64,000 nt of DNA from Squalus acanthias (Eukaryota). Made by a program: the position numbers and the translations under genes. The notes beneath the pieces were generated by a model, which made no database searches, had not been told where the DNA came from, and worked only from the letters and a program-made list of their open reading frames with translations. The DNA lies in assembly GCA_030390025.1 (NCBI GenBank), contig CM059431.1, positions 159,094,001-159,158,000 on the forward strand, written 5' to 3'. This document shows positions 3,186 to 63,244 of the stretch, piece after piece. How positions within the stretch are numbered: position 1 is the first letter of the stretch; every line of letters starts with the position of its first letter.

Positions 3186-4680
3186 GTTCTTGCTGAAGAT
3201 GGTGGCAAACGCTTCAGCCCTGTCTTTTACAGTCACGTGCTGGGCTCCACCATCATTGAGGATGGGGATATTCATGGTGGTTCCTCCTCCGGTTAGTTGT
3301 TCAATGGTCCACCAGCATTCACGACTGGATGTGATAGGACTGTAGAGCTTTGATCTGATCCGTTGCTTGTGGGATCGCTTAGCCCTGTCTATAGCATGCT
3401 GCATCCACTTTTTAGCATGCATCTAGTCCTGTGTTGCAGCTTCCCCAGGTTGGCACCTCATTATTAGGTATGCCTGGTGCTGCTCCTGGCATGCTCTTCT
3501 ACAACCATAATTGAAACAGGATTAGTCCCCTGGCTTGATGGTAATGGGAGAGTGAGGGATATGCCGGGCCATGAGTTTATAGATTCTGGTGGAATACAAT
3601 TCTGCTGCTGCTGATGGAACCTCAGCGCCTCATGGATGCCCAGTTTGGAGCTGCTAGAACAGTTCCGAAACTATCCCATTTAGCACAGTGGTAGTGCCAC
3701 ATAACACGATGCAGGGTACCCTCAGCGTGAAGAGGGGACTTCGTCAACACAATGACTATGCGGTGGTCACTGCTACCATTACTGTCATAGACAGATACAT
3801 CTGCGATAGGTAGATTGGTCAGGACGAGTTCAAGTAGGTTTGCACCTCGTGTTGGTTGTCTCCCCAACTGTCACAGGCCCAGACTGGCAGATATGTCCTT
3901 CAGGACTCGGCCCAGCGCGGTCTGTAGTGGTTCTACCGAGTATCTCTTGGTGATGGACATTGAGGTCCACCACCCATAGTAAATTCTGTGCCTTTGTTAC
4001 TCTCAGTACTTCTTCCAAGTGGTTTTCAACATGGAGGAGTACTGATTCATCATCTGAGGGAGGGTGGTAGGTGGTAATCAGCAGGAGCACTCTTTGCCCA
4101 TGCTTGACCTGAATCCATGAGATCTCATGAGTTCTGGAGTCAATGTTGAAAACAACCAATGCCACTCCTTCCCAAATGTATATCACTCTGCCGCCACCCC
4201 TGTTTGGACTGTCCTGCCGATGGGACGGGACATTCCCAGGAATGGTGATGGAGCAGTTTGGGGCATTGGCTTAAAGGAATGATTATGTGAGTATGACTCT
4301 GTCAGGATATTGCTTGACTGGTCTGTGGGACAGCTCTCCAAATTTTTACACAAGTCCCCAGATGTTGGTGAGGAGGACGTTGCAGGGTCCACTGGGCTGG
4401 GTGTGCTGCTGTTGTGCCCGTAGCCGGTGCCGAGGTCGAGGGCGGGTGGTCCGTCGGCTTTTATTCTGATTATTGTGCTTTGTAGCGGTTGATAAAAAAT
4501 GTGTGGCTTGCTAGACCATTTGAGAGGGCAGTTTAGAGTCATCCACATTGGGTCTGAAGTCACATATAGGCCAGACCAGGTAAGTTCGGACAATTTCATT
4601 CGCTAAAGGACATTAGTGAACGAGATTGGTTTTAACGACAATCCGATAGTTTCGTGGCTCCCATTACTGATACTAGCTAG
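3186..4680 (-). mobile_element. RTE-X-like non-LTR element fragment (AP endonuclease region)
   Basis: Endonuclease-like segments LLITTYHPPS, VVDLNVHH, QPTRGANLLELVLT and SSDH in broken frames; family assignment from memory. Confidence 0.6.
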
Positions 4681-4719
4681 TCAAGTCCTTTGGATGACTA
4701 GCCCAGTGACACTACCAAT

Positions 4720-6175
4720 CCTAGGATGCACTGCAGCAACTCCAACCAAAATTCTGTTCTGAGTACTGATGGGGTGATGAGTCTGCTTGGGAGTGCAGCC
4801 AGAGACAACTCCAAGGCACCACTGGTGTCTCAGCTGCACAGCGGGGGGGGAGGGGGGAGGGGGGGAGGGGAGGACGAAAAAGAGTGGAAGAGCAATAATG
4901 GTAAGGGATTCGATAGTTACTGGAGCAGACAGGCGTTTCTTCGGCCGCAGACATGACGCCAGGATGACATTTTGCCTCCCTGGTGCCAGGGTCAATGATA
5001 TAACTGAGCGGCTGGATCGAAAGTATTTAGCCAGAGTAAAATGGAAACAAAGACTGACAGGAAAAACTGCAACGGAACAATGTGCGATCTTTAAGGAGGA
5101 AATGTTCCAAGTGCAGGCTAGGAACATTCCAACAAGAGGGAATGGTAAGGGTAACATATCAAGGGCTCCTTGGTTGAGGAGGGAGATAGAGATGATGATT
5201 GAACAAAAAAAGCGGGTGTATGTTGGATGTCAGGTGAATTCTTCCATGGAGAACCAGACTAAATACAATAAGTTGAGAGGGGATGTGAAGATGAAAATAA
5301 AATTGTCAAAGAAAGAATATGAGAGTACAATGTTGTTTAACATAAAAGGGAACCCACAAATCTTCTACTGGCATGTAAACAGTAAGCATGTAGTAAGAGG
5401 CGGGGTGCGGCCTATTAGGGACAAAGAAGGCGATATATGCTTAGAGGCGCAGGGCAAGGCTGGAATACTCAATGAGTACGTTGTATCGGTGTTTACTAAG
5501 GAGGTGGATGCTGACAAAATAACCGCATCAGAGGAAAAGGTAGAAGCAATGGAAGGGTTGATAATTGATAGGCAGGATGTACTATACAGGCGGGATATGC
5601 TTAGAGTGGATTAGTCGCCTGTTCGAGATGGCTTGCATCCCAGATTGCCAATTGAATTGAGAGAGGTGATAGCGGAATTGCTTGCCATCATTTTACAATC
5701 TTCCCTAGATGCAGTGGAGGTGCCTGAGGATTGGAAATTGGCAAATGTGAATACATTGCTCAAGAAACGGTATACGTACAATCCAAGCATCTACAAGACG
5801 GTCAGTTTTACATCAGTGGTGGGTAAAGTTTAAGAAACAATAATCAAGGAAAAAATTAACGGGCATTTCGAGAGGTTTAAGCTAATTAAGTAGGGCCAAC
5901 TCCGATTTGTAAAATGCAGATCGAGTTTGAATAATCTGATTGAATTTTTTGATGAAGTGACAGGGAGGATCGATGAAGGGAATGCAATGGATGTTGTCTA
6001 AATGGATTTTAGGAAGGCGTTTAACAAAGTACCACATAGACGGCTGGTTAACAAAATTGAGTATCATGGAATAGGTGTATCAGTGGCAGCTTGGATAAGG
6101 AATAGGGGAAAGGACAGAAAACAGCAAGTTGTGTTAAATGGCTGTTTTTCAGACTGGAGGATGGTTTATTTCTGC
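4720..6175 (+). mobile_element. CR1 fragment (ORF1 esterase piece fused to ORF2 linker/RT piece)
   Basis: RAIMVRDSIV...CLPGARV (SGNH-like ORF1) joined to ORF2 sequence including MDFRKAFNKVPH. Confidence 0.8.
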
Positions 6176-9100
6176 TGGGTTAGTTCTTAGTCTATTAAAT
6201 AGAAACATGGTAGTGAAACTGAGTCCGTGGAGTGCACATTCTGATCCATGTGGGAAGACCTGGACATTCGCTGAGCTTGGACGATCACAAGTGCGGGAAG
6301 AATCGCCAGCTACAGCAACTCGAGCGCAGGAGTGGCGGCTGAAATCACTGAAGTGCATCCACGAAGCTGAGAGTTACGTGGATAGCACGTTTCTAGAGGT
6401 GGTCAACCCGCAGCTTAAGAGTATGCAGGACGAGAGTGAATGGGTGACCGCCAGACAGAAGAGGAGGACCAGGCTGGTAGTGCATGAATCCCCGGGGTGC
6501 ATCGCGCTCTCAAACCAGTATTAATTTCTGAATACAGGTGAGGGTGATGGTTCCTCTCGGGAGTGCAGCCACTGTCATGTCCACAGCACCACGGGTGGCT
6601 CAGAGTCACGCTGCGAGGAAAAATAACAGAAGAGCCATAGTGGTAGGGGATTCGATAGTTAGGGGAACAGACAGGCGTTTCTCCATAGACGTGATTCCAG
6701 GATGGTATGTTTCCTCCCTGGTGCCAGGGTCAAGGATGTCACTGAGCGGCTGCAGGACACTGAGCGGGGAGGGGGGACAGCCAGAGGTCGTTGTCCATAT
6801 CGGTACCAACGACATTGGCAGAAAGAGGGATGAGGTCTTGCAGGCAGAGTTTAGGGAGCTGGGAGAGTTTAAAAAGCAGAACCTCAAAGATAGTAGTCTC
6901 TGGATTACTCCCGGTGCCACGTGCTGGTGAGTACAGGAATAGGAGGATAGAACAGATAAATGCATGGCTGGAGAGATGATGCAGGAGGGAGGGCTTTAGA
7001 TTCCTGAGGCATTGGGACCCTTTCTGGGGAAGGTGGGACCTGTACAAGCCGGACGGGTTACACCTCAACAGAGCCGGGACCAAGATTCTCGCGGGGAGGT
7101 TTGCTAGTGCTGTTGGGGAGGCAGTAAACTAAATTGGCAGTGGGATGGGGACCAGTATATAGTAGTAGCAAAGAGGAATAGGGTGCATAAATGAGTGAGT
7201 GTGTTGGATAGTACTAGAGAAGATAGTACCAGAGGCGTTAGAAGTACCTTTTTAGATAGGAGCAGACTAAGGAAGACTACGAAAAATTCAAAAATGGGCT
7301 TAGAATGCATGTACGTAAATGCACAAAGTATGGTGAATAAGTTTGGTGAGCTACAATTAGCCGTCTGGCAATATGATGTTGTGGCAATAACGGAAACGTG
7401 GCTTAGAAAAGGTGAGGACTGGGCACTTAATATTCTAGGGTACAAAATGTTCAGAAAATATAGGGGAGGAAAAAAGGAGGTGATGTGGCAGTGCTGCTTA
7501 AGGAAGACATTGTAGCTTTGGAAAGGGAGCATGTTCTTAAGGGGACAAGGACATAATCCATTAGGTTAGAGTTGAGGAGCACAAAGGGTATGATCACGCT
7601 ATTGGGGGTATTCTATAGGCCTCCAAATAGTGAGGGGGAGGTAGAGAAACAAATATGCAGGGAAATCGCAGAGATATGCAAGAGCTATGGAATGGTGATA
7701 CTAGGGGACTTTAGTTACCCAAATATCGATTGGGATAATGGTAGGATAATGGGAATGGGAGGTGAGGAATATGTGAAATGTGTTCAGGAGAGTTTTCTTG
7801 CCCAATATGTTCTTGGCCTAACTAGGAATGCGGCATTTTGGGATTTGGTGCTGGGGAATGACGTGAGCCAAGTCGACCAAGTGTCTGTGGGAGAACACTT
7901 GGGTACGAGTGAACATCGTATCATGTGTTTTATATTAGCAATGGAGAAGAGGAAGGAACAATCTAGAGTGGAACATCCAAACTGTAACAGGGCTAACTTC
8001 AATGGGATGCTAAAGGATCTAACCGGGGTAAAATGGAACCAAAGACATACAGGAAAAACTGTAACGGGACAATGGGTGATCTTTAAGGAGGAGATGTTAG
8101 AAGCACAGGCTAGGTACATTCTAACAAGAGCGAAGGATAAGGGAACCAAAGCAAGGTCTCATTGGATAAAGAGGGAGATAGAGAAGATGATGAAACAAAA
8201 AAAGAGGGTGTATGATGCATGTCAGATGAATTCTTCAAGGGACAACCAGAGCAAATACAATAAGTTGAGAGGGGATGTGAAGATGGGGAAAAAATGGATA
8301 ATCAGAGAATATGAGACTAGAATGGCGGTTAACATTAAAGGGAGCCCAAAAATCTTCTACCGGCATGTAAACAGTAAGCGGGTAGCAAGAGGCGGGAGGG
8401 GTGCCTATTCGAAAAAAGAAGGTGCTATATGCTTAGCGGCGCAGGTCAAGGCTAGAATTCTCAATGAGTACTTTGTATCGGTGTTTACTAATTAAGTGGA
8501 TGCTGACAATATATCGGTAGAAGTGGAAAAGGTAGAAGCAATGGAAGGGGTGAACATTGATAGACAGGATGTACTATAATATCTGGGTATGCTTAGAGTG
8601 GCCAAGTCGCCTGCTGCAAATGGTTTGCGTCCCAGGTTGCTAAGGGAATTGAGGGAGGAGATAGGGGAAGGGCTTGCCATAATTTTCCAATCTTCCCTAC
8701 ATGCGAGGGTTGGTGCCTAAGGATTGGAAATTGGTAAATGTGCCATATTTCTTCTAGAAAGTCTAAAGGACAATGCTACTAACTACAGGCCGGTCAGTTT
8801 AACATCAGTGGTGGGTAAAGTTTTAGAAACAATAATCAAGGTAAAACTTAACTGGCATTTGGAGAGGTTTAAGCTAAGTAAAAAGGGTCAACAAGGGTTT
8901 GTAAAAGGAAGATCGTGTTTGACCAGTCTAATTAAACTTTTTGATGAAGTAACAGAGAGGATTGATGAAAGGAATGCAATGGACGTTGTCGACATGGATT
9001 TTCGGGAGGCGTTTGACAAAGTACCACATAGAAGGCTGGTTAACAAAATTGAGGATCATGGAATAGGTGGGTCAGTGGCAGCTTGGAAAATGAATTGGCT

Positions 9101-9784
9101 TAAAGACAGAAACAGCGAATTTTGGTAAATGGCTGTTTTTCAGACTGAAGAATGGAAGAGAGCGTTGTTCCCCAAGGTTCAGTGCTGGCCCCACTGCTTT
9201 TTTTATATGATTTAATGACCTAGATATTGGAATACAGTGTAAAATTTCTAAATTTGCCGATGACACCAAACTTGGGGTTGTGGCAAGCAGTGATGATGAT
9301 ATCAATCGACTGCTACAGGACACAGAAAGGCTAGCAGAATGGGCAGACTAGTGGCAGATGGCATTTAATACAGAGAAGTGAGAGGTGATGCATTTTGGCT
9401 GAAGGAACAGGGAGAGGCAATATAGACTTAATGGTACAGTTTTAAAGAGTGTACAGGGACAGAGGGACCTAGGGACCTGGGAGTTAATGTGCATAGGTCC
9501 CTGAATGTGGCAGGCCATATTGGGAGAGTGGTTAGCAAAGCTTATGGGATCTTGGGCTTCATAAGTAGAGGTATTGTGTACAAAAATAGAGAAGTTATGC
9601 TGAACCTTTATAAAGCGCTGGTTAGGCCGCATAATGAAGTATTGCATCCAGTTCTCATCACCACACTTTAGGAAGGATGTGAAGGTCCTTGAGTGGATGC
9701 AGAGAAGATTTACCAGAATGGTTTCGGGAATGGGGGATCTTAGCTACAAGGACAGGTTGGAGAAGCTGGATTTGTTTTCATTAA

Positions 9785-9987
9785 TGATGTGGAGATGCCG
9801 GTGTTGGACTGGGGTGGACAAATGTGAGAAGTCGCACAACACCAGGTTATAGTCCAACAGCTTTATTTGAAATCACAAGCTTTCGGTGGCTGCTCCGTCA
9901 TCTGACGAAGGAGCAGCGCTCCGAAAGCTTGTGATTTCAAGTAAAGCAGTTGGACTATAACCTGGTGTTGTGCGACTTCTCACATGC
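9785..9987 (-). mobile_element. Penelope-derived palindromic mini-insertion inside CR1 ORF2
   Basis: Inverted arms of about 65-75 bp, shared tail atgatgtggagatgccgg..., TSD gttttcattaa at 9774-9784 and 9988-9998. Confidence 0.8.
9898..9934 (+). ncRNA. Minimal type-I hammerhead ribozyme motif
   Basis: UCAU-CUGACGA-A-GGAGC(agc)GCUCC-GAAA-GCUU-GUGA: catalytic boxes, stem II, palindromic AGCU and a 4-bp stem I. Confidence 0.7.
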
Positions 9988-10395
9988 GTTTTCATTAAAG
10001 CAAAGGAGGTTGAGGGGTGATTTGATAGAGGTGTACAAGATTATGATGGGTTTGGATCGGCTAGACGGGGAAAGGCTGTTCCCACTAATTGATGGTACAA
10101 GGATTAGGGGACACAATTTTAACGTTTTGGGCAAGAGATAGAGGGGGGCCGTGAGGAAAATCCTTTTTATGCAGTGAGTGCTGATGACCTGGAATTCGCT
10201 GCTGACGGAAGTGGTGGAAGCGGAGACACTCAATGTTTTCAAGTGGATACTGGATAGGCACTTGAGGGAAATAAATTTGCAGGGCTACGGGGATACAGCG
10301 GGGGAATGGGACTGACTCGAATGCTCTGCAGAGAGCCGGTAGCGACTCGATGGGCCGAATGGCCTCCTTCTGTGCCATTATGACTCTATGACTAT

Positions 10396-10727
10396 AATTC
10401 GCCAAGGCTTCTTCGGCAGCACTTCCCAAAGCCGCGACCTCTTCCACCGAGAATGACAAGGGAAACAGGACAGTGGGAACACCATCACCTGCAAGTTCCC
10501 CTCGAAGTTACACACCATCCTGACTTGGAAATATCTTGCTGTTCCTTCATCGTCGCTCTGTCAAAATCTTGGAACTCCCTACCTAACAGCACTGTGGGAG
10601 TACCTTCACCACACGGACTGCTGCGTTTCAAGAAGGCGGCTCATTACCACGTTCTCAAGGGCAATTAAGGATGGGCAATAAATGCTGGCCTTGCCAGTGA
10701 CGTCCACATCCCAAGAACGAATAAAAC
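10396..10727 (+). mobile_element. RTE-X-like element 3' end
   Basis: KSWNSLPNSTVG...RFKKAAH C-terminal RT-type motif followed by an A-rich end. Confidence 0.55.
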
Positions 10728-11159
10728 TCAAGCACTTGAAATATGTTCGAAACTTCTGGTAACTGTTAATGAGCAGCTGTGCGTGCTTGTCTTGTATAGG
10801 TGCTAATAATTCGGGTGAATTGAGGGCTAAGATAGCAATTCTAATCTGGCTGTGGCTCCAATGTGTGTAAAAGTAAACCGTATCTGTTGACGCACAGAGT
10901 GCTCTGCACAGTGTGGTCTTAAATAGAATGCTTCCAAACAGAGTATTAAATTTGGGAATTTGGAGAGAGTGGGAATTCGGCGCAGTGTAGGATAGAGTTG
11001 TTGCTTTTTGCCTCCAAAATTTGGAGCGCTTTGTGCTACAGGTAAGTGTTTAATTGCATCTGCCTATTAATTAAAATAGATCTACTAATGAGATAAACAT
11101 TAAATATAAGCTAAGTTAATTAAATATATAAACTTTATTTAACCAAATAAAGAAAACAA

Positions 11160-12700
11160 GTATGTATATAGATGTGGTGCAGGTGGTGTGCAGCAACTGC
11201 AGCATGTGGGAGTTTGTGGAGAATATTGCAGTCCCGGATGACGACGTCCACAGTAAGTGTCTGCATCTCGAGCAACTTCAGCTCAGATTTGCTGAGCTTA
11301 AGTGCGAGGTGCAGACACTGCGGAGCATCAGGGAGGGGGAGTTAACTGGACACTCTGATCCAGGAGGTAGTCACACCTATTCGGTTAGGTAGTGGTACAG
11401 GTCTGGTTAGTGATCTGGAACAGCAGGGTGTGACTGCGACTCAGGCAGGTGAGGGGTCTCCTGGGGCGCTGTTGGAGGAGCCTCGGCCTTTGCCTTTATC
11501 CAACACGTACGAGTTTATTGCTGCCTGTGCGGATAAGGGCGAAGTCTGCAGGTTTGATGAGCAAACTGACCAAGGCACCGTGGTACAGGAAGCCATTCAA
11601 GGGAGCGGGGAGAGTGAAAAGGAATGTTGCATTGGTATGGGACTGTATAGTCAGTGGGATAGATACTGTTCTCTTCAGCCGCGATCGGGAGTTCCGAAGG
11701 CTGTTTATCTGAGTTAAGGATATATCCTCGCGCCTGAAGAAAAAATTGCATTGGGAGGAGGAAGTCCAGTGGCCGTAGTCCACGTATGAACCAATGACAT
11801 ATGTTGAACTAGTGATGAGGTTCTGCTGAGACAGGTTGTAGTGCAAGTTTCCAAATTAAAATGTTGAACCTCAAAGGTAAGACTCTCCGAATTGTTACCT
11901 GAGCCACTAGCAAATTGGCATTGGGACAAGCAGATGAGAGATTTAAATGCCTGGCTCAAAGATTGGTATGCGAGAAACGGTATTGATTCATGGGGCACTG
12001 GCAACAGTAATGTGGAAAGAGGGAGCTGTTCCGTTGGGACAGGCTTTACTTAAACCGGGCTGGAATCAGTGTCCTGGCGAATCTAATAACTAGGGCTATA
12101 GATGGGGCATTAAACCTAAAGGCAGAGTTGTCAGGTAACGGAAAATTTTGAAATCTAAAAATAAAAGTTAAGAAAATGGAGCAGTGTAGCGATTTGGGTA
12201 AAGATAAGCAGAGTGTGAAACGAAGGCACAGACTGATTTTAACAGTAATAGTTCACCAGCGAATAAGGTGAAACCAGGGAATAATGGTAAAAAGTTAAAA
12301 TTAAAAGCTCTTTATCTGAATGTACGAAGCATTCGTAATAAGATACAATAATTAATTGCATAAATACAGATGAATGGCTTCATCTAATAGCCATTAGAGG
12401 GACGTAGTTCTATGGTGTCCGAGTTGGGAACTAAATACTCCCGGTTACTTGACATTTCGAAAAAAACAGGGAGAAAGGAAAAGGAGGGTATAAACCTAAT
12501 AATAAAGGATGAGATAAGGGCAGTAGTGAGAAAGGATCTTGGCTCGGAAGATCAGGAAATATAATCAGTATGGCTGGAGATAAGAAATAACACGGGGCAG
12601 AAAACACTGGTGGGAATAGTTTATAGGCCCCTTAACAGTAGCTATACGTTGGGCAGCGTATTAATCAGCAAATAATCGAAGCCTGTAACAAAGCTAACCG
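11160..12700 (+). mobile_element. CR1 5' part (ORF1 Cys-rich/esterase + endonuclease start), decayed
   Basis: VVCSNCSMWE and KCLHLEQLQLRFAEL ORF1 motifs; LYLNVRSIRNK and YRPLNS endonuclease remnants. Confidence 0.75.
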
Positions 12701-13029
12701 TCTCAGACCCAAACTCCTGTAGGTCGCCGACCACAATGATCTCAGAAGTCCACACCTGAGAAACATTAACCTTCTAATGCACATGCTGACGTTACTGTGG
12801 GAGAGGAATTCATTGAATAGTAGAACAGGATGCAGGCCGTGTCAGAAGTCATCATTGGTGAACTCCAGGGTGAAAAATCGGTTTCATTGCTTCTTGTACG
12901 CCATTAAAGTGATGCAATTATGAATTTGTTTTGTGAGTCTGTAGCAGTTCACGAGCCTGCACTGTCAGGTAGAGAGGTTGAAAGCAGGGCAGTGACAAAT
13001 GGAACGTGCTCTGATAATGGGATCTTTTA

Positions 13030-13290
13030 TTTCTACTCTTGCCTCAGTATCACCTCATTATCCCAGCACCAGCATCACTTTTGTCATCATTTCACTTCTG
13101 CCCTACACCCCATCACAGTTAGTTGTGCAGTTTATTTATTCCTTTTGTTCTTTTCCAACACAACCCCTGTTAATCGCTAACATCTTCCAGTCTGATGAAA
13201 GGTCATCGACCTGAAACGGTAACTCTGTTTCTCTCTCCACAGATGTAAGCGGACCTGCTATGTGTTTCCACCATTTTCTGTTTTTGTCAC
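13030..13290 (+). mobile_element. Penelope-type pLTR remnant with degenerate hammerhead (13189-13224)
   Basis: ctgatgaaaggtcatcgacctgaaac...ctctgtttctctctccacagatg, the same as the terminus of the GIY-YIG element at 47800-49040. Confidence 0.65.
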
Positions 13291-13979
13291 AATTTGTTTG
13301 CTTTCTTTTTTTAAAGAGTAAGTTCAGCTCTGAAAGGTTTATTTAACTACAGAGCCTCATAAGTGAGAGATAAGCATATTTTCCGAATGTAGGTGGGTTT
13401 TCTTTGTGAGAGAGTGCATGTAATGATAAAAAAAAATGCCGGCAGTTTGTAGAAGATTTTAAAAAAAACTCCAGATTGTGAACGGATGGACCCAGATTAG
13501 AGTTTCTGAGTGTTGGAGGGCATGAGCAGCGGTTTGTATTTTAATGGGAAGGGAAGCTGTTGCTATAACCTGCTGTGAGTGGTGAAGAAACATTCAAAGC
13601 GTGGTGAGAGCGTTGATCAGCATGATTAATGGGTTACAATAAAGAAATCTATGTAAATGCAAAATGAGTGCGTGAGTCTCACTCTTGCGTTCGGGTCAAG
13701 CCATTAAACCTGTTTCTGAACTGAGCCCAAGTTTTAAGTACGATGCTGCTGGTGCTGATCTGCTTAGCAATCTTCCTGCAGCATGGAAGCTGCCTCTGCA
13801 TTGGGTACCAACGTTATTAGTAACTCCAAGCAGTAATGGGATGAGTGCACACTTAATGTGTTTTGTGGTAGTATCGATTGAGTTAGGAATGTTGGCCGAG
13901 ACATCAGCAGACGCTCCTAAGCATATTCGGATGGTACCACGGGGTAATTAGCATTCATCTGAACGACATGAACTTCAGC

Positions 13980-14440
13980 AACAGCAACAACTTGCATTTA
14001 TATAGCACCTTTATCGCACTAAAACGCCGCATGGCCTTTAACAGGAATATTATCAGAAAAAATTAACACCGAGGCAAACAAAGAGAAGACATTGCAGGGG
14101 ATTTTCCGGCTTCGACTAGATCGATAGAAATGGAACCAGGCGAGGACAGTCCCATCAAGCTGGACAACGCTGAAGAAGCGTTGGAGGGCGATGTTATGGT
14201 CAACTGTGTCAATGACTGTGGACACGTCTCGAGCTATGACGGTGGCTTGTGCACCAGAGTCACAGTCACATGGGATGCCATCTATGAATTTGATAGTGGC
14301 CATTCCAGTGTTGTGGCATGAGCGGAAACCCGATCGGAGATGTACAAACATGGAGTTGAGGGAAAGATGGGCATGGATTTGTGAGGTGACAACACGATCA
14401 ATGACTTTGGAGAGCAACGTGAGGTTGCAAATTAAACGGT
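13980..14440 (-). mobile_element. L2 LINE fragment
   Basis: RSGFRSCHNT...DTVDH...LAWF RT remnant plus (ttg)n-type L2 tail. Confidence 0.7.
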
Positions 14441-15132
14441 TTTCCCTCGATTGAAAGTCACATCTGAAATTTGATTACGGCCTTTTAACTCACTCCCAGT
14501 GAGGCTTTACACTCTAAACTGAAAAATTTGAATGCAAGAGGCCTTACTACACTTTGCCTGCTCGTCATCAATAGGTGTTAATAAAGAGCGCGAAGCCGGG
14601 CACAGCCATCACCCCTCTCAACCCCCACCGCCCCCGCCCTCCACTCCCACCTCACCACAGCTTTGCTTGCGCATGATACTGTCAATTTAGCACAGATCAG
14701 AAGCTGACTTGACAACTTCCTGTTCTTGACTGCTGCAATTCACAACAGTGAGTCCATTATGTTGCCGGAATAGGTACAATATATAATTAGTTTATTATAG
14801 AATTTAATGTTCCCTTACAATTGATAACCGTTAGCAATCTCAAACTTCTGCTATTCGGATACATTGAACGCAAGCAGCATAGGATATCACGTTGATGGAG
14901 TATAACAAATGTAGTGCTCCCATGTGTTTCCATATTGTTTGCATTGGATGACGATGTCTTCCATTGAGTTTATAACGTGCGAATTGAGCGAGCTGCGTTT
15001 TTATTGATTAATAACACGAATTGTGCTTCAGCTAAATACCATCAATTAGTGAGAATATCATTGATACATTATCTATCGCAATGACATTCACTAAGGATAC
15101 TATTACTACATCAGTCAAATAAACCTGACATT

Positions 15133-15600
15133 AAAATGAGAAGTCGCACAACACCAGGTTATAGTCCAACAGATTTATTTAAAATTACAAGCTTTCGGAG
15201 CTGTCGCCCCTTCGTCAGGCAAAGTTACTGTGAGAGAATCTATCAGAATTCACAGAATATAATAACACAGAGAAAATGCATAGATTAAATCTTTCCCTAC
15301 ATCAAAGACACACTAAGAGCACAGCCAAGACAATGAGATGTGTCCCCTGGGACACATCTCATTGTCTTGGCTGTGCCCTTAGTGTGTCTTTGATGTAGGG
15401 AAAGATTTAATCTATGCATTTTCTCTGTGTTATTATATTCTGTGAATTCTGATAGATTCTCTCACAGTAACTTTGCCTGACGAAGGGGCGACAGCTCCGA
15501 AAGCTTGTAATTTTAAATAAATCTGTTGGACTATAACCTGGTGTTGTGCGACTTCTCATTTTTGTCCACCCCAGTCCAACGCCGGCATCTCCGCATCATG
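15133..15600 (+). mobile_element. Penelope-derived palindromic insertion (214-bp arms, 2-nt spacer)
   Basis: 15133-15346 is the reverse complement of 15349-15562 with one mismatch seen; tail to 15600; TSD tgacattaaaat at 15126-15137 and 15599-15610. Confidence 0.9.
15473..15510 (+). ncRNA. Minimal type-I hammerhead ribozyme motif (mirror copy on minus strand at 15185-15222)
   Basis: UUGC-CUGACGA-A-GGGGC(gaca)GCUCC-GAAA-GCUU-GUAA. Confidence 0.72.
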
Positions 15601-16046
15601 ACATTAAAATCATATAGCAGAGACTGCATGGTGGACCACCATTAATTGGGAACCAAGTGGGAAGAAATAGATCTGACGCAAAATTAGTGCTAAGGGTCCT
15701 GGACAACGTTTCCTCCGCTCTGTGTGCAGCGATCGTCCCCGGAAAAGGAATCTGTTAATAGTTATCAGGAAAAAGGTAACACGATGTGGAATCGCCAACG
15801 GTGCTTCTGGAAATTAGATAGTTCAATTTTTTGACAAGCCTTCTCTTAGCGTCTCGCCTGCCACACATTTGACAGAATTCTCGGTGCGTTACTCAATGGT
15901 GAATGGTGGAACAGTCGCCCTGTTCCTGGCAGCAATCCAGTGGCACTGCACAGTTCGATATACTTCTCTTTTATGTGTCGTAAGTCCCACGCATCCTCTA
16001 AATTTTGGCTGGTGTTATTCAATATAGCCATTGAAATAAATCAACC

Positions 16047-16149
16047 TTATTGAGAAACGGCCATGCAGTCAAAGTTACATCTGGTCCCGTGTACCTGGTC
16101 CGTCTCCAGAGATTTCTGTCCTCCTGGAGTGAAGTCGTTGCGTCCCAAT
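16047..16149 (-). CDS. NLR terminal coding exon
   Basis: ttttacag acceptor, phase 2; LGRNDFTPGGQKSLETDQVHGTRCNFDCMAVSQ-TAA. Confidence 0.8.
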
Positions 16150-16349
16150 CTGTAAAATAACACAAGTAAAAATATGAAATAGATGATAGTAAGGGTGAGA
16201 ATTGTTCTGTTCATTGCATGTAGCGATCTAGTAACGTCTGCCATAAAGGATGCGTTTATGCTGTCGTTGCACATGCAAAAGAGTAACGCGCTGCAAAAGG
16301 AATGCGCCATTTTGCTTCATATCTTGTTTATCAGTTAAAAACATAGACA

Positions 16350-16745
16350 GACCCCGCATTTATATAGCGCGTTTCAGTAGCTCAGACCGTCCCGAAACGC
16401 TTTACATCCAATGAGCTCTTTTGAAGTGCAGTCACTGTTGTAATAGTGGAACTAACTGACAACTTATGCACAGCACGATCCGACAAACAGCAATGACGTA
16501 ATGACCAGATAATCAGTTCCAATTATGTCTTTGAGGGAAAATATTGACCAGGACAGCGAAATAACTCCCTAGTTCTACATTGACATGCATCTACTAGGGC
16601 AGATGTGGCCATGGTTTAACGACACCTCCACAGTGCAACATTCCCTCAGTACTGCTCTGAAGCGCCAGCCTAGATGATATGCTCCCCAGGCTTGAACTCA
16701 CCACCTTCTGAAGCACAGGCCGGAGCAGTATCAACTGAGCCATAG
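16350..16745 (-). mobile_element. DeuSINE/SacSINE1-like SINE, decayed
   Basis: L2-type tail (catttatatagcgc), Deu-like core (ttgaagtgcagtcactgttgtaat...gcacagca...aaacagcaatg) and a tRNA-like head near 16690-16745. Confidence 0.6.
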
Positions 16746-16830
16746 TATAAAAAAAAACACTTACGTTATTCCTTGTAAATATTTAACTAATAAATACAAC
16801 TTTTACTTAATATATATCTTTTTATCTAAC

Positions 16831-17022
16831 CTGATTTCCCTCAGATGATTTTTCCTCTGGATGAGGCGGCGCAGTGCGGGAATAGAGCTGTCTGTTAGGT
16901 TATTGCAGCATTTTAAACCCACGGTATTGTTACTCAAGTCCAGCTCCATCACTGACTGGTTACCAATGATAGCGGATGTCAGCTCTTCGATACAACCGTC
17001 TGTGAGATTGTTAGCTTTTAAG
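16831..17022 (-). CDS. NLR exon 7, 192-nt LRR exon
   Basis: ttaccacag acceptor, AG|GTTAGA donor; LKANNLTDGCIEEL...MELDLSNN...NNLTDSSIPALRRLI. Confidence 0.88.
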
Positions 17023-19320: not shown

Positions 19321-21019
19321 ATGAAAGCCCATTGCTCACGAAATCCACATTCTACCATCACTCTGTCATGGATTACACAGCGTCCTCCTGGGCATAAAAT
19401 TGGAATCAGAGGCACGACAAAAAATTCCAAACATAAGTATTAAATGTATCAAGTATCAATTTACATATACGGTTTTAATTAATCACCATTAGTGCCTGTG
19501 GTTCGGGACACTTTCATGATCTAGTGCTTCAACGAAGTTCTCCCCCAGTGGCTGCAGCATGGCCGGCGGATAGCTATTGAGTTTCCATGGGGGAGACTTC
19601 AGATGGCCTTGCAGAAGGACCTCGAGCAGTTCTGGACATAGAATACCCAGCTGTAGACTGCAAAACCTCGGCATGAGCGGCGACGTCTGGCCTGGCTGTC
19701 GGGCAGGCAGCAGCAAAGGCAATGTCTGAATGGCAGTGGTGGGGGCAGGAATGCAGTCATCCTGAGAGAGAACAGCAGATTTCTGCTCCACGGACCCACT
19801 GCCAATCTGCCGGGGCGGCGCCGCAGTTTTCCTAGCAGTCTGATAGCACAGTTTGCTGGCCTGTTGCGACATCCTGCAAGTCCCGGTCGACAGTTGTAAA
19901 CCCAGCCACGATGGCAGCAGTCTGAGCTTGTTTGACAGCAAGCTGAGACTGCATGAGAGCGATCTGCACTTCTGTGGCAGCACGAAGACGCTGAGTCATT
20001 TGCACCTGAGCTTTAATGGCAGCTGCGACATTGCACATCAGATGCAACAACAAGTCGGGGTCGACACTCTCTCTTCCTGAGTTGTCTTGCATGGAAATTC
20101 TGCCTCCAAGCTGTGTGCAAAGCCCCGGGCAATGTTGAAGGCAAACTCCTCCATGCTCCTTGACATTGCAACATGTTCTCCGTCAGGCTTACAATTGCAC
20201 CTAGCAAATGGGTGTGCTTGCCCATCGCCCTTCTTCTGAATGCCGCCCCATCGAGGTCCTCATCTGAGTCCTGTGCTGAGGCAGTCGCATACGAACTGAA
20301 GCCCACTCGTGCCTGGTGCCTCACCCTGTGCAGATCCCGCTTCTAAACTATCCTTTAAATGATGCGCAGTGCCAGTATTTGTGTTGGTGTCTGTGAGTGA
20401 TAGATGCAGTGACGCTGTGTCTTCTCCTTTTTACCCCTCGCTCTCCTCCATTGCCTGGGGGAAAGGCTGGGCTGGTACTTGATCTTGATTATATGAAAGC
20501 AGAAAGGCACAAGAGTCGGGTTATGGTGAGGGAAGGGGGAAGCAGGATATCCATGCAAACAACATTAGCAGCTTGACTATGAGAAGAGATTGTGGGATGA
20601 GTGGGAAGTAGGATGTGAGAAGAAGGAGTAGGGTTCAACACACCGCTGTTGTCCCAAAAGGCTTCAATCGCGGTGATTGCCACGGGTTCCATTAGTTGCC
20701 GCCCAATGATTTCCAGCACTCGCTACTCCAATTGGCAGAGGTCCTGCATGGCAGCTTGCCCCCTGCCTGTCTGCTGCTGCTCCCGGCGATTATGCGCCAC
20801 ATTGAGCTGTGGTGCAATGTGTTTGGGTGATATGCCTGCAATGGCTCAATAGCTGTCAGTGTGTGCAAGTTGTGAAATGTTGGTGTGAGTGTTGCAGCAG
20901 TGATCAGGTTGTGAGGGTTAAGTGAAGATATGATAGTGAGGACTGAGTGCTGATAGGTAGAGATTGTTCGTAGGTGAGTGCAGGAGGCGTGGTACATTGG
21001 TCAGGAATTTTCTGAACCC

Positions 21020-21271
21020 TTCATTTACTTTGACCGGCCATGTGAGGTCATTAAACCTCTTTCGGCACTGCTTCGACGACCTGGGGACCACAGTGCTGGC
21101 CGTCATACAGTCGGCTATCTCTCGCCACAGCCTTCGGGATGTATGCAGCCATGGATTCCTGCCGCCTTGCAGGAAGAGGACATCCCGCCTCCTCTCCAGG
21201 GCCACCACTGGTGCCTGCAGAGCCCCGTCTGAGACTCTACGGGCTCTTCCCCTGTGCTGAGGCTTGGCCAT
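21020..21271 (-). pseudogene. Harbinger Myb/SANT-like DNA-binding protein, first exon remnant
   Basis: RARRVSDGAL...RRDVLF...LWREIA...RSSKQCRKRFNDL trihelix motif, with AAG|GTAAAT donor near 21025. Confidence 0.75.
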
Positions 21272-21414
21272 CTGCTTCTAGCACCGTCTGATTCCAGGTT
21301 GAGTTCGAACTGGATTGACAATGAGGTGCTGTAGGATCAATGTACCTTCCCTTTAAGTACTGAATTAAGCCTGAGCCGATATTAGCCCACCTGTTGAGCG
21401 GTAATCCAATGACA

Positions 21415-24530: not shown

Positions 24531-25282
24531 AATCATATTAATCAGGACTGAGCACGAATTTTGCGTGCTGCATAGATCATTTTGAACAGGTGCAGCTTAA
24601 TATTTTTAGGCCGTGACACTGCCCGTTCTCTTGCCATATCCAATTTTTAGCACTTGATTTTTTTAAATATATATACTTTTAAAGTTTGTTCATGATACTT
24701 CAGCTTCTACCTTCTCCGTGTAAATGCCCTAATCTTTATTGCACTCTCATAATATTTGTTTTTAAATTACAGATAATCAGTGCCTTTTTCATCAGCTTGC
24801 TGTCTGTGAGAATTATTCAACGTGATTCGTTGCTGAGACAGCTTAATGACATCACTTCTGCTCTAAGCCAGGAATCCACTTTTTGCAATGCTGCAGTCAA
24901 TTACACGGTTAGAAACCCAAAGTTCTCGCCACAGAGATCGCGAGATCTCTGTGAGCCGCTTTCTTCTTCGTCAGCATCGATCGCTGTCTCTTTGCCACTG
25001 ACCGCAAAATACGAACCATGTGTTTATCTAGCTTGCCCTTAAATGCATCTGTGCTATTGGCCTCAACCATTCCATGTGTTAGAAAGGTATACATTATAAC
25101 CATTTTCTAGGAAAAAAAGTTTCTTCTGAATTCCTTATTGGATTTATTAGTGACTATCTTGTATTAACGGCCGAGATTTTGGACTCCTCCCAGTGGAAAC
25201 AATAGTATTTACTTTTTCATTTTAAAATTGCAAATCATCATTCCTATATTATATTCGTCAGTATTGCAGTCATTATACAAAA

Positions 25283-25815
25283 TCAAAATACTGCGGGTGC
25301 CAGAAATCTTAAATAAAGCAGAAAATGCTGGAAATACTCAGCAGGTCAGGCAGCATCTGTGAAGAGCGAGAATCAGAGTTACCGTTTCGTCAGAACTGGC
25401 AACAGCTGGAGATGAAACAGGTTTTTAAGCAAGTGTAGGGACAGGGAAAGGTGGAGGGGAGGAAAGAACAAAAGGGAAGGTATGTGATAGGATGGAAGGT
25501 AGGAGAGATAAGAGACAAAAGGGCTGATGGTGGACAGAAAATGCTGGAAATACTGAGCAGGTCAGCCAGCATCTGAAAACCATCATCCCTTTTGTCTCTT
25601 AATCTCTTCTGCCTTCCATCCTATTACAGAGCTTCCCTTTTGTTATTTCCTCCCCTCCCCCCTTTCCCTTCCCCTACACTTGGTTGTAAACCTGTTCCAT
25701 CTCCAGCTTTTTCCAGTTCTGACGAAAGGTCATCGACCTGAAACGTTACCTCTGTTTCTCTCTCCACAGATCCTGCCTGAAATGATGTGTATTTCCAGCA
25801 TTTTCAGTTTTTATT
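25283..25815. mobile_element. Older Penelope-derived inverted-repeat insertion (second family)
   Basis: About 220-bp diverged inverted arms (25312-25530 and 25580-25815); hammerhead-like core at 25715-25751. Confidence 0.75.
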
Positions 25816-25842
25816 GCAGTTATTATAATTAGCTTCACTTAC

Positions 25843-25929
25843 TCCAGTGTTTGTATTCTGCAATATTTTTTCTTCAATGCTGTAGACAGCCTTTTCATTC
25901 CCACATCTTCCAGCTTAATCCCATTGAGC
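25843..25929 (-). CDS. NLR exon 6, 87-nt RI-like LRR
   Basis: tgtttag acceptor, GA|GTAAGT donor; LNGIKLEDVGMKRLSTALKKKYCRIQTL; phase 2-2. Confidence 0.88.
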
Positions 25930-26819
25930 CTAAACACAAATAACATTAGACATAACGTGGAATGTGTTCAAGCTCCGACGTAGGGGAATAAATTCCAGTG
26001 TTGAACTCTATAGGATATAAATTCGTCTCGGGCGGTAGCGTAATATGGGCCTAATAGCACCGCCCGCCCCTTATAGGCCAAGCCTGATATTCGGTTCCAT
26101 TGAACAGTATAACAGGCGGAAAATGCGATCGCATCAATTTTGCTCTGTCGTTCAAGACGAATTTCAGAATTTCTGTTACGTTTTTCATATAGTTTATTCA
26201 TCTGATTTAGTAATTGCTTGAGATTCAAAAATTAAGCATCATAAAGAATTTTCTAATAATTGAAGCCCATTATTGATAATTAACATCAGAGAAAGATTTC
26301 ACGTAAGGTAGGAACAAGTGGTGGCAAATGCAATTACACGTGGTCTTTAATTGCCATTATTCCGCTTGAGATAGCTACCTCAGAACGTTCGTCTTCGCTA
26401 GAGAGAGCACATAAAATACAGACGTAACAGAGTAAATTTTAAATGAACTTGGTGACCATAGCTTTGTGTTCTCCTATTTGGAAATCGTAATGAACCGTTA
26501 GCTTTAAGGTAAGCAGTAAAGCACTTAAAGGTTCATCTTGTATTTTTGTAAAATATGTCACTTGGATTTTCGATAATCTTTGCCCCGGTTAATAATATTC
26601 ATACAGTTACCCAGTTCCCTTTATTGGCAGGAGAGGGTTTGCCAATATTGAGCCTGTAAGCTGATGTGCTCGGAGGAAGTAAAGCACCTGACGGCGAATG
26701 CCAGGCAGTTCAATCTGCCCAAATCGGTGCATTTTCTACCATGAGATACTGATGTGACCAATAAAGCCCCTACAATTACCCCGCAGCCCTGACGGTGCGA
26801 TAGGCATTATGTAAATGAC

Positions 26820-27075: not shown

Positions 27076-27174
27076 CATGTCACACGATGCAAAAACCTCT
27101 CACGAAATTGCTGACATGCTTATGTAGATGTCGCGGAATTCGTTAGTACTTTTCAGTAACTTATTTAAAATTAC

Positions 27175-28897
27175 CTCAGAATTTTGCATTTGTGTAAAAC
27201 CCCTGCCAGTCTCTGGATCCCTTCATCTTGTATTGAGCACTGGGACAGATCTAGTTCTTCTAAAACGTTACAAGGCCTCAGGACCGACGCCAGTACCATG
27301 CAATTCACCGGACTGAGTTCTGAACCACAAAATGCAACTTTCTTTACAGATCCAAGCAATTTCTTCAGCAGTGGTGAGTTTCGGGATTCATACAGTCGGT
27401 GGAATGTGGCCAGAAGTTTTATTTTATTCTCCTGTCCCACACCCTTTTCAATCATTCGCTGAATCTCCTCTTGCAACCAATCTAACACTTTGTGGCATGT
27501 TGATTCATCGAACGGACCCAAATCCTTTGTTAGCTCTCGAGTTGAATATGGAGAGGAGAGACCAGGCAGGAAACGGTAGAATATCTCAAACCGACTATCA
27601 CTGTCCCAGGTTGCTTTATTCAGGAGCTGATCCATTTTCTGTGGAGTTGATTTCAGGAACAGTGAGAGGGCGGCGAGAAACTCTTGTAGTGTGAGATGAG
27701 TAAATGTGTGCACGGCACTCCTGGCTGAGTTGTCTTCGCGCAGAACTTGCATCATAAACCCGGAAGTGAATTTTGAAGGTTGCAGGTTGTGACGTTTGAA
27801 ATCATCATCATGAAATATCAGGGATCTCTTGTTGACTCCGTCATAGGCCATCTCCGCGAGTTTGAGTAAAACCTCACGTCTGTTTTTAATATTACAACCT
27901 TCTCTTTTCAACAAGCTGGCCAAGAAGTTTGAAAAGATTTCGGTGATAATTTCAGGAAGTTGCCTTTCTCTTTTCTCTTGTCCTCTAAAGAGCGGGGCCA
28001 ACGTGGAATAGATGTCCCAGCAGTACTCGGGAATATAACACATGGTGTACAGGATGTCGTTCTCTTCGATGTATTTGAAAACGGCGTCCGCCATCTTGGC
28101 ATACCCGAAAAATCTCCGACAATAATCTCTTCTTTCTTCTGCAAGGAAACCGAGTATCTCCGCCCAGAGATTGACATAGGATTTATTCAGCGAACCCAGG
28201 GCACTGGGTCGGCTCGTGACCAACACCGAACAACCCTTCAGTAACTTCCCCTGAACCAGACACCGGACAGTATCAGACACTTCACACCGACACTCGGGAT
28301 CGAAACACTGATGATCTGGATCCGCGTTTCTCTGCTGATAACTAAAATTGATATCCTCATGAAATGCATCTAACCCGTCAAATATAAACAGTATCTTCGC
28401 TGGATCTTCCCACACGCGCTCAAGGTCCTTCCCAAAATAACGATATGAATTTAGTACGAGCTGCTTCAGACTTGTCTTCTCTTTTACGTCTCGTAATTCC
28501 CGACATTTGAAAAGAAAGACAAAGTTGAACTGTTGATATATTTCGCCTGCGGCCCAGTCATGGACAAGCTTCTGCACCATGGTAGTTTTACCGATACCAG
28601 CCACACCTGTTACTACCGAGGTTCCAGACAGGCTCGTTCGGCCGAAACTGCTTCTGAATAATTGATCAATTCCAACTTCCTCCAGCGAATTCGTTAGGTG
28701 TTTCTTTTGCCATTTTTCGTGCTTTCTACCAGTTTCCCAAATTTCGTCTCTTACAGTTCTAACTTCCAGAGGGCTTTTAACGATTATTACTTTTGTGTAT
28801 CGATCTTCAAGCGTAAAAATACTTGTCCGTTCCCCACAATTCACTTTCATCTTGTCGCATTGTTGGCGGAGAGTTTCTTTATGTTTGTTTTGAATCT
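27175..28897 (-). CDS. NLR exon 5, NACHT NTPase + helical/winged-helix domains + first LRR
   Basis: 559-aa ORF with Walker A GVAGIGKT, Walker B ILFIFDGLD, sensor-1 LVTSRP, WHD motif FTHLTLQEFLAA and LRR LEELDLSQCSIQDEG; tttgcag acceptor at 28898-28899 and AG|GTAATT donor. Confidence 0.95.
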
Positions 28898-29084
28898 CTG
28901 CAAATCAATTAAAATTAATAGAGTCGACGGCAAAATCATTACACGTTGAATGAGCATGCGCATAATGCCTCAAAAGATAAAACATGATGACCATGTGACA
29001 TGAAACGCAATGGTACTGTCTAATATCTATCCATACATCTCTCTATCGATGTTTCTTTTTTTTGTTTCATTCTTTCTTCGTTTA

Positions 29085-41900: not shown

Positions 41901-42985
41901 TGACTTGTGTTTTCCTCTATATTTGGCTGCGCATCAACCCCTACTGTAGCTCCACTCCGTATCCCATCCCACTGCCAAGTTAGTTTAAATTCCCCCTGAC
42001 AGCACTCGCAAACCTCCCCGCAAGGATGTTGGTCCTGGTGCAACCCGTCCGACTTGTACAGGGCCCACCTTCCCTAGAAACAGACACAATGATCCAGGAA
42101 ACTAAAGCCCTCCCTCCTGCACCAACTCTTTAGCCTCGCATTCTTCTGCTCTATCCTCCTATTCCTATACTCACTAGCACGTGGCACCGGGAGTAATCCA
42201 GAAATTACAACCTTTTTGGTCCTGCTTTTTAATCTGCTACCTAGCTCCTTAAATTCTTGTTGCAGGACCTCATTATCTTTCTAACTATGTGGTTGGTACC
42301 AATATGAACCACGACCTCCGTCTTTTTGCAAGGCCCCTTCAGAATGCCCTGCAGCGTTCAGTTACATCCTTGACCCTGGAACCAGGGAGGCAACTGACCA
42401 TCCTGGAGTCACGTTTGCGGCCGCAGAAACGCCTGACTGCACCCCTCTCTATTGAGTCTCCTACCACTATTGCACTTCCACTTTCACTCCTCCACCCTTG
42501 TGCGGCTGAGCCACCCACAGTGCCGTGAACTTGGCTCTGGCTGCTCTCCCCAGAGGAACCGTCACTTTCACGCATTTCCTACAGGGAACAACAGTTGTTG
42601 AGTGAGATGCATTCTGGGGCTTTCCTGACTACCGGCCTGCCCCCCTTCTTCTGACTGGTGGTCTCCCATTCCCTCTCTGACTGCGCTTTCTAATTCTGCG
42701 GCGTGACTACGTCCAAAAACGTGCTATCCATGTAAGTCTGAGCTCGCGGATGCACCGCAGTGCCACCAGCTGATGCTCGAGCTCCGAAAACCGGATCTCC
42801 AGTTGGCCAAACCATTGGCACGTACTGTTCATGTGGCCATCCAGACTGCAAGAAGCGTCTAGGAATTCCCACATGCTGCAGGACGTGCAACGCACGGGAC
42901 TGAGGTCACCTGGCACAACCTTAATTAAAAAACTCTTACCTCATATTTAAACTCTCGATTCTCGCTCTCCCGAACTACCTTAACT

Positions 42986-43332
42986 ATGATGTGGAGATGC
43001 CGGCGTTGGACTGGGGTGGACAAAAATGAGAAGTCGCACAACACCAGGTTATAGTCCAACAGATTTATTTAATTTTACAAGCTTTCGAAGCAGTTCGCTC
43101 CTTCGTCAGGTAAGTTAGCAATGAGAGAATCTCCCAGAATTCACAATTTAAACCCAGACAAAATCTATTGTAGGGAATAATGTGAATAGATTTTGTCTGG
43201 GTTTAAATTGTGAATTCTGGGAGATTCTCTCATTGCTAACTTACCTGAGGAAGGAGCGAACTGCTTCGAAAGCTTGTAAAATTAAATAAATCTGTTGGAC
43301 TATAACCTGGTGTTGTGCGACTTCTCATTTTT
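42986..43332 (-). mobile_element. Penelope-derived palindromic insertion (148-bp arms, 15-nt spacer) in CR1 5' region
   Basis: 43022-43169 is the reverse complement of 43185-43332 with one mismatch seen; TSD taccttaactatga at 42976-42989 and 43333-43346. Confidence 0.9.
43241..43279 (+). ncRNA. Minimal type-I hammerhead ribozyme motif (mirror copy on minus strand at 43075-43113)
   Basis: UUAC-CUGAGGA-A-GGAGC(gaacu)GCUUC-GAAA-GCUU-GUAA; the mirror copy has CUGACGA. Confidence 0.72.
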
Positions 43333-43606
43333 TACCTTAACTATGAACTACCTTAAAAAAATAGACTTAAAATTGAAGAAAAAAAAACACTCAAGCACTA
43401 TTCACTAATCAGCTTCCTCCCCTGCGCCGACTTAACTTTGGAACACGTATATCTTTTAATCTGCACCAAGGCACTTAAATTTAGACGCCCAAGTTTGTAA
43501 CAAAGCGAGAAATAGAGAAATACTCATCAACCAATCATTTACCTGCTTACTGTTGACGTGACACTTCGATTACTTTTTACTTCTTTACACTCACCGGTCC
43601 TCTGTA

Positions 43607-48195: not shown

Positions 48196-48243
<48 letters not shown>

Positions 48244-58208: not shown

Positions 58209-58350
58209 CCCTTTAGATGGTCACTCCCTTTGATCTTTCTACTCAACCTCTGTCCTGTTCCATCTTCCTGTGTGAAGTGCAGTTGCTTGCACGAGATCTG
58301 GACCCTCTATCAGGACAGAAATTATATTTAAGAGTATTTTCTGAACTTAC

Positions 58351-62199: not shown

Positions 62200-62445
62200 A
62201 TAGGTTTATAGTCCAACAGTTTTATTTGAAATCACGAGCTTTCGGAGCGCTGCTCCTTCGTCAGGTAGAGTGAAGGAATACCAATCAGCAAAGCATATAT
62301 AGAGAGAGAACAATGTGTAGCGTACAGTGTCAGACGACTACAGTAAATCTTACTGACTGCCCTCCATCTCACCTCGGCAGAGATACAATCAAGGATGGCA
62401 TTACATCAAAGACACAGCAAAATACCGCTAAGACAATGAGCTGAG
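62200..62445 (-). mobile_element. Penelope pLTR single arm (same family as the palindromes) with hammerhead motif at about 62232-62268
   Basis: ttatagtccaacag...gctttcggagcgctgctccttcgtcagg...tacatcaaagacaca...aagacaatgag matches 15150-15340. Confidence 0.75.
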
Positions 62446-63244
62446 GTAACAAGGGGTCTAACGTGCCAACAAAAAACCTGTGCCCCACATCATTTTCTTA
62501 GAGTTAGAGACTATTCTGCAGGGATACATGGAGCGGGTGATCATTGATGAATTAAATGATCCTTCACAAGGTTTAACAAAGTCTGGCGGTATAATATTAT
62601 ACTTGCTCACAGATTTTTGTTTAATATTTTGGATTTGTTGTGTTTTGATGTTAAATTCTGGTAGTTTATGACTGTGATATCTATCCACACACAAGATATA
62701 GCTGGGAGTGATCTCTCAGTTCTCTATGGTAAGTGACATTGTCCGTGTTTCCATGGAGCTGTGATCTGGTTGGTGATTCTATTTTAATATCTTGACCATA
62801 TCTCTCCTGGTTGCAGCACTGACTGATGAGCACTGCAGGAGGTGAGGAAATTTTCCACTGTTCCACTAATATACACACTAATGCATAATGTCACGTCACT
62901 TTAAACAGTGAGATGATGCACAGCATTGATTAGTGGAATATATTTTGGGCTGACAATCTCAGAATTGTCCATAAATATGCAAGTGGTAGATTTGCCTGCA
63001 GTTTTACAAACACAATTCTCCACTTGTGCGCGTGTCTCGCTGTGTGTGTGTCCACACACGTGCGTCCAATCAAACACTTAGTCGCATCCTTTCCTTACCC
63101 AACTGGAAATGTAAAAGCGATTCAGTCTCGGATCAGTAACTTCTCCAAATTAAGGTCCAAGATCTTTGATAAAATTAATTTAGAACTGAGTTTGAGACCT
63201 TGTAAAATTCAGTTATCTGCTGTTTCATCTTCTTTTTACCTAGA

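Follow-up and report, generated by a model that had tools for sequence, protein, structure and literature searches.

The palindromic insertion at 15126..15610 of the analysed stretch of Squalus acanthias DNA (64 kb; the window), here called copy A, is in all probability (about 0.85) a severely 5'-truncated insertion of an EN+ Penelope-like element (PLE), in which the terminal module of the element (pLTR) is present twice, head to head. The first-pass annotation had taken the locus for a Penelope-like insertion that is non-coding, has one arm inverted and a tail on one side, and carries a target site duplication (TSD) and a minimal hammerhead, and this is supported both by the architecture and by published PLE features; judging from published PLE biology, the family as a whole very likely belongs to the PLEs. 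The palindrome is real but ordinary. Its layout recurs at three of the four family loci in the window and has already been described for PLEs, which does not support a special status of copy A.

Geometry of the insertion

Copy A consists of two 5'-truncated pLTR copies of 214 nt each, separated by a 2-nt head-to-head junction (15347..15348). The sense strand of the element is the minus strand in the left, tail-less arm (15133-15346) and the plus strand in the right, tail-bearing arm (15349-15562), and the arms differ at a single pair of positions (15318/15377). Beyond the right arm there is an unpaired tail of 36 nt on the plus strand (15563-15598; 67% A+C), which ends on an ATG overlapping the right TSD copy. 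The insertion is flanked by an exact AT-rich direct repeat of 12 bp (15126-15137 and 15599-15610). The left repeat and the left arm overlap: the 5 nt that close the repeat are also the outermost ones of the arm and agree with the short end of the element (microhomology), so that the insert proper is 15138-15598. The arm length, the spacer, the single mismatch and the direct repeat had all been noted earlier and are confirmed on the sequence; the unpaired tail is present as well, on the right side only, and comprises 36 nt, not 37.

We compared one arm and the right flank with contigs of four public sequencing runs (1,837-15,335 matching contigs per run). Most of the contig depth fell on the element and two unrelated intronic repeats, and the family is very abundant in these runs, the summed contig depth being no measure of copy number. 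Among the 24 loose-end rows listed out of 521, those behind the element clustered at 15558/15563/15568 and at 15599-15602, that is, at the same two outer ends as seen in the window. At position 15377 essentially all run depth reads T; thus, the left arm keeps the family base, and the C in the right arm is a private change. Accordingly, the insertion is young, as had been suggested, only in a relative sense: there is one private change and no clock. The allele of copy A is present in none of the four runs, where neither its centre nor an empty site was observed, and among the contig pieces listed none crosses a junction of the insertion. The best DNA run showed 2-9 differences per 120-310 nt from the unique flank, and hence represents another allele, a paralogue or another species.

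The region 14500-16500 was also compared with Rfam, in line with an earlier suggestion to apply hammerhead covariance models, and no hammerhead match was obtained at E ≤ 10. Of the 13 matches at this threshold, 12 are to models of miRNA hairpins and one is to a model of a bacterial RNA, and none reaches the gathering score. A miRNA precursor was considered and rejected, the best score being 154.7 bits against the gathering score of 249; the matches reflect the hairpin only.

An 8-bp stem can pair the region before the short end with the tail (15526-15580, plus strand), with predicted probability of at most 0.9 in copy A and in a second copy (B, below) and 0.18 in a third one (C). It is a candidate protein-binding or start-site structure.

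Copies of the family in the window

With one arm and the tail as the query, BLAST (E ≤ 0.001) identified four loci of the family within the window. A comparison of palindromic and single-arm copies had been proposed for the whole genome; within the window, three of the four loci are palindromic and one has a single arm. The three loci besides copy A, two of them palindromes, had previously gone unnoticed. Copy B (9774..9998) is a shorter head-to-head palindrome, with the tail on the left only and an 11-bp TSD, situated inside a LINE which we take to be CR1-like. Copy C (42976..43346, the insert portion being 42990-43332) has 148-bp arms, a 15-nt spacer continuing the tail-less arm, the tail on the left only and a 14-bp TSD. 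Copy D (62206..62493, minus strand) is a single diverged arm with a hammerhead, and a search for a TSD at this locus found none; it may be a collapsed palindrome. A 9-nt tail-end remnant is located just past copy D on the opposite strand (62485-62493), and the tails of copies B and C are the only other places in the window where this motif occurs.

The TSDs of copies A, B and C (12, 11 and 14 bp, respectively) lie in AT-rich targets. Among random pairs of positions, an 11-bp repeat at both ends was observed in 22 of 3000 trials. Copy B splits the LINE so that the same three codons close its left flank and open its right flank, and in five other LINE copies of the window these three codons occur once each. 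Thus, the flanking repeats are true duplications. RT and endonuclease domains are present in several LINE copies of the window (461-2243, 56444-58209 and 51442-54380), two of these copies being 91% identical and inverted relative to each other. The window also contains two mutually similar, long, low-complexity, strand-skewed tandem arrays (35414-38950 and 49037-50744).

The three palindromes have in common two outer ends, approximately 36 nt apart, and a tail on one side (3/3); their arm lengths and centres differ. Within a copy, the arms differ at only 1/214, 1/148 and 3/63 sites, and the alignment identity between copies A and C is 83-89%. This combination, together with the differing centres, indicates that the mirror half was made, or at least homogenised, separately at each insertion. 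Hence the palindrome does not move as a whole unit.

Minimal hammerhead motif

Each arm of copy A contains a hammerhead motif composed of CUGACGA, one unpaired A, a 5-bp stem II, GAAA, the palindromic AGCU and a 4-bp stem I. The right-arm motif is at 15473..15510 (plus strand), with the predicted cleavage site after CUU (15506), and the left-arm motif is its mirror at 15185..15222 (minus strand), with the predicted site after 15189. These elements had been described for both arms, and a descriptor scan bears this out. It yielded eight matches in the window, compared to the mean of 0.04 in 100 shuffled sequences, none of the shuffled matches having a stem I of at least 3 bp. Six matches fall at the four family loci, within the pLTR.

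We aligned seven motifs, two of them from a second family described below; the left arm of copy A (identical) and the left arm of copy B (broken) were left out. The minimal structure pairs in 96% of the 77 cells, and two-sided changes are observed at 8 of the 11 pairs (no value as high in 500 shuffles), although these changes mostly separate the two families and hence reflect few independent events. The motifs have the core boxes, an extra nucleotide at 9/10.1, the G10.1-C11.1 pair, a palindromic 15.1-16.1 segment and a stem I of 4-5 bp, as in minimal hammerheads.

In one arm alone, the predicted probability of stem II is 0.83-0.89. In the full palindrome it is 0 on either strand, and it is also 0 in growing minus-strand transcripts of copy A. 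Stem II would be lost in transcripts of the palindrome because, with the arms placed head to head, transcription from either side always reaches the antisense arm before the sense arm. When two hammerhead copies were folded together, the palindromic segments paired and stem I did not, which is uninformative on activity. CUU is a poor hammerhead cleavage triplet. The ribozyme of copy A is therefore probably inert, being a passenger of the pLTR, since read-through RNA would contain the antisense arm ahead of the sense one, and a minimal hammerhead depends on another copy in the sense orientation; according to these predictions, no cleavage is expected at copy A. It had been proposed that transcription from either strand yields both a ribozyme and a long hairpin. 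The hairpin would indeed be present in any read-through RNA, but according to the folding predictions, the 214-bp duplex would trap the ribozyme. Published minimal hammerheads show no cleavage as monomers and weak cleavage as dimers (reported in PMC4209133), and cleavage by the Anolis one requires the protein of the element (reported in PMC11167929).

Several observations concern the surroundings of the motif. AATAAA is located approximately 10 nt past the hammerhead site on the sense strand of the element (15516-15521, plus strand, in copy A), with equivalents in copies C and D and in the left arm of copy B. The truncation point of copy B coincides exactly with the 5' edge of the core (9888-9905); in its tailed arm, the centre is adjoined by a substitution and a 3-nt deletion. 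The 148-bp arms of copy C differ at a single pair of positions (43105/43249), which corresponds to N7, a free position of the core, probably by chance.

Link to Penelope-like elements

The link of the copy A family to PLEs rests on architecture, not on protein: an inverted 5'-truncated copy is situated head to head at three of the four loci, and at copy A the 36-nt tail is present at one end only. None of the four loci in the window has an attached RT/GIY-YIG reading frame. A search with a 42-aa sense-frame query ending past the tail yielded no longer protein or candidate, and among 150 relatives of the endonuclease of the second family none matched the query of the copy A family.

This second PLE family is represented at 47800-49003 (minus strand) by a broken end of a GIY-YIG-type reading frame, a TA/A run, a 3' region and a minimal hammerhead with ACGU at 47922, the broken frame (48255-49003) lying behind the hammerhead. 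Ten relatives of this frame were scanned, and GIY-YIG was found in five (weak), RVT_1 in four and both in two. The Atlas clusters for the frame were at 0.94-0.95, one of them being named GIY-YIG, and HMMER also recognised the piece; a Pfam search with the endonuclease piece left it unrecognised, and none of the 37 candidates of a word-index search with it scored. Another locus of this family is a head-to-head palindrome in an intron of the NLR gene (25262-25820), with a 9-bp TSD and extra sequence at the left end only. At its centre there is a 41-nt copy of its own end region (25535-25575, 95% identical to 25319-25359).

Exact DNA motif scans gave no matches in metagenome contigs, viral contigs and prokaryote genomes. 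The shark family is not described in the literature searched, and no shark family appears in the text and the searchable supplements of PMC4209133; as Repbase and Dfam were outside the scope, the family may well be catalogued there.

Origin of the inverted arm

The mirror arm could have been produced in two ways within a PLE insertion. In the first case, two cDNAs would be primed on both strands of one staggered cut. The GIY-YIG endonuclease of the element would make this cut in AT-rich DNA, resulting in the 12-bp duplication, and each free 3' end would prime a cDNA on the element RNA, one cDNA from a distal start site and the other from a site approximately 36 nt further in. The different start sites, as we propose, would leave one arm with the tail and the other without it. 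Both cDNAs would stop early, and their 3' ends would be joined at the centre, so that the RNA 3' ends would face outward at the TSDs and the truncated ends would meet at the centre, as is observed. Purified Anolis PLE protein is reported to cut and extend both target strands at AT-rich sites in vitro, and its reverse transcriptase to start at two sites bounding the tail (PMC11167929). In the second case, the cDNA would start at the tail, stop, self-prime and be copied back to approximately 36 nt short of its start, and after simple fold-back of this kind the loop would be expected within the tailed arm.

The 15-nt spacer of copy C aligns with the sense strand of copy A as a continuation of the tail-less arm, and therefore speaks against simple fold-back. 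This is the one informative centre of three, since the centres of copies A and B are uninformative on the route, and a later lopsided deletion could mimic the same picture. The almost perfect symmetry of these two centres (0-2 nt) favours fold-back, as does the near-identity of the arms, which is expected if one of them was copied from the other but could also be caused by later gene conversion; the 5-nt microhomology at the tail-less end of copy A would fit annealing to the target, and junction palindromes of PLEs have been read as self-priming, a mechanism proposed in PMC3846280. On the other hand, the short end is common to many copies, and a second start site of the kind reported in PMC11167929 explains it directly, while the 41-nt piece of the element's own end at the centre of the second-family palindrome suggests more than one cDNA. 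Besides, exactly one tail is present in all four palindromes of the two families in the window, the chance of which would be at most 1 in 16 if the start sites were chosen independently. We consider priming of two cDNAs at one staggered cut to be the most likely route, at about even odds, and fold-back of a single PLE cDNA to be rather unlikely. A more specific version of the two-cDNA route, in which the mini-palindromes are a fossil record of a two-primer step peculiar to PLEs, obligatorily using one distal and one proximal start site with subsequent joining of the cDNA ends, is put forward tentatively, at somewhat under even odds. As for the name of a fold-back insertion given in the first-pass annotation, the inverted arm is real, but fold-back is only one possible origin of it, and in its simple form is contrary to the spacer of copy C.

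MITEs and fold-back DNA transposons are characterized by symmetric terminal inverted repeats and a TSD of a fixed length. Here, the tail is one-sided and the TSD is 11, 12 or 14 bp, and both classes were rejected. More generally, a non-autonomous palindromic unit moving as a whole, be it a MITE, a fold-back DNA transposon or a retrozyme, would also be short and non-coding, and would combine inverted repeats with a hammerhead and a high copy number. Against this, the ends are asymmetric due to the tail, the TSD length varies, the arm lengths and the centres differ between the copies, and the head-to-tail hammerhead array required for retrozymes is absent, all paired copies being head to head. 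This reading is thus highly improbable, and largely refuted. The chance that copy A is a fold-back artefact of the assembly or of the library is slighter still. Palindromes with one mismatch in 214 bp can be artefacts, and no read was seen across the centre of copy A; but both flanks are unique and are joined by the 12-bp duplication, only one of the two sides bears a tail, a base that is private with respect to the family is present in one arm, and copies B and C have the same layout with TSDs of their own, copy B splitting the reading frame of a LINE.

Position relative to the NLR gene

The NLR gene upstream of the insertion on the minus strand, reported earlier, is real, as evidenced by its NACHT and LRR exons and their homologues. 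The NACHT exon (27171..28904, minus strand) is recognised by Pfam (NACHT, E = 6.9e-37; NLRC4_HD2; NOD2_WH), and the 120 best listed homologues all come from sharks, rays or chimaeras, the best one having 60% identity. One LRR exon is located at 16830..17021 (minus strand), where 101 of the 120 homologues match, and another one was mapped by homologues to 25842-25937. The probable last coding exon (16047..16149, minus strand; stop codon 16049-16047) has an AG acceptor and an open frame, and is weakly supported by homology: 7 of the 120 homologues match 15900-16300 at E < 0.05, some of these matches extending into the intron or being off frame. With this exon, there are 436 nt between the stop codon and the right repeat, in agreement with the earlier estimate of about 440 bp. 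An intron of the gene contains a Myb/SANT-like fragment of a reading frame (20918-21277, minus strand), possibly a part of a Harbinger-type transposon.

It had been suggested that copy A may lie in the 3' UTR of this gene, and one could assume that it has a host function there, the hairpin or the ribozyme controlling the mRNA of an immune gene. Four hexamers (AATAAA, ATTAAA, TATAAA and AGTAAA) are absent on the NLR strand between the stop codon and the element, and the first ATTAAA (15411-15406) and the first canonical AATAAA (15174..15179, minus strand, at the far end of the palindrome) lie within the element; a duplex of approximately 210 bp would arise in read-through RNA. However, there is a weak variant, CATAAA, at 15975-15970, and the ATTAAA is situated in the arm that is transcribed first on the NLR strand, hence its use would end the RNA before the hairpin closes. 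Judging from these signals, the 3' end of the NLR mRNA could lie on either side of the hairpin or inside it. The weak homology support of the last exon and the predicted sequestration of the ribozyme also argue against such a function, as does the spread of the family: with four loci in 64 kb, or one every 16 kb, landing behind a gene is expected, and the position of copy A needs no special explanation. A host function is thus improbable. Two presumed RNA runs do not cover the unique NLR exons or the 3' region, and so give no evidence either way.

Implications

By itself, copy A matters little, being one of very many PLE stumps. At the same time, insertions of this class are short and still complete, so that a span of 500 bp contains both outer ends, the TSD and the central junction, thus providing clean material for tests of PLE integration. 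If the two-primer reading is true, the dense shark copies would give enough independent junctions to decide between it and self-priming, which would settle the formation of PLE inverted repeats, called undefined in passages of PLE papers. If the NLR mRNA runs through copy A, it would carry a natural 200-bp dsRNA in the 3' UTR of an immune gene. For annotators, there is a warning that long perfect hairpins and matches to miRNA models in shark genomes often are PLE ends.

Comparison with known systems

The layout observed here has close counterparts among described PLEs. An inverted 5'-truncated copy and a tail of 30-40 bp, often at one end only, are reported by Craig et al. 2021 (PMC8557442), and inverted pLTRs with a 31-bp tail and a TSD of 9-10 bp by Arkhipova et al. 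2013 (PMC3846280), while inverted pLTRs and short 3' extensions are listed among curation clues in PMC8969392. As far as the accessible text of PMC3846280 and PMC8557442 goes, our copies share with EN+ PLE insertions the inverted 5'-truncated copy placed head to head, the 30-40-nt tail at one end, the short AT-rich TSD and the arm of approximately 200 bp, and differ in that only two terminal modules are present, without a reading frame or a direct pLTR. The TSDs are 11-14 bp here and 8-10 bp in the rotifer PLEs of the available descriptions.

The hammerheads resemble those of metazoan PLEs (Cervera and De la Pena 2014, PMC4209133), at least in the features given in the text, in the core boxes, the extra nucleotide before stem II, the G10.1-C11.1 pair, the palindromic tetranucleotide at 15.1-16.1 and the 4-bp stem I. 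Motifs on opposite strands are also shared, pairs 100-700 bp apart being reported in the same paper. Stem II is 5 bp here, compared to 7-8 bp in the Schistosoma motifs described there.

The sections of Frangieh et al. 2024 (PMC11167929) on PAc, a Poseidon-type PLE of Anolis carolinensis, describe an AT-rich target, an AC-rich tail between two ends and a minimal hammerhead upstream, as in the shark family. A start region of PAc is 85-92 nt past the cut site, as computed from that text for the 111-118 position (the text is silent on which of the two start sites this is), and the distal end here is 92-94 nt past it. The reading frame of PAc starts at stem II, whereas here the sense frames are closed at this point and the tail ends on an ATG. 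Finally, non-LTR retrozymes (Li et al. 2026, bioRxiv 10.64898/2026.07.22.740005) are, in the preprint's account, likewise non-coding, hammerhead-bearing and derived from PLE pLTRs; however, their units are repeated in tandem, head to tail, and can form dimeric ribozymes, whereas the copies in the shark window are head to head.
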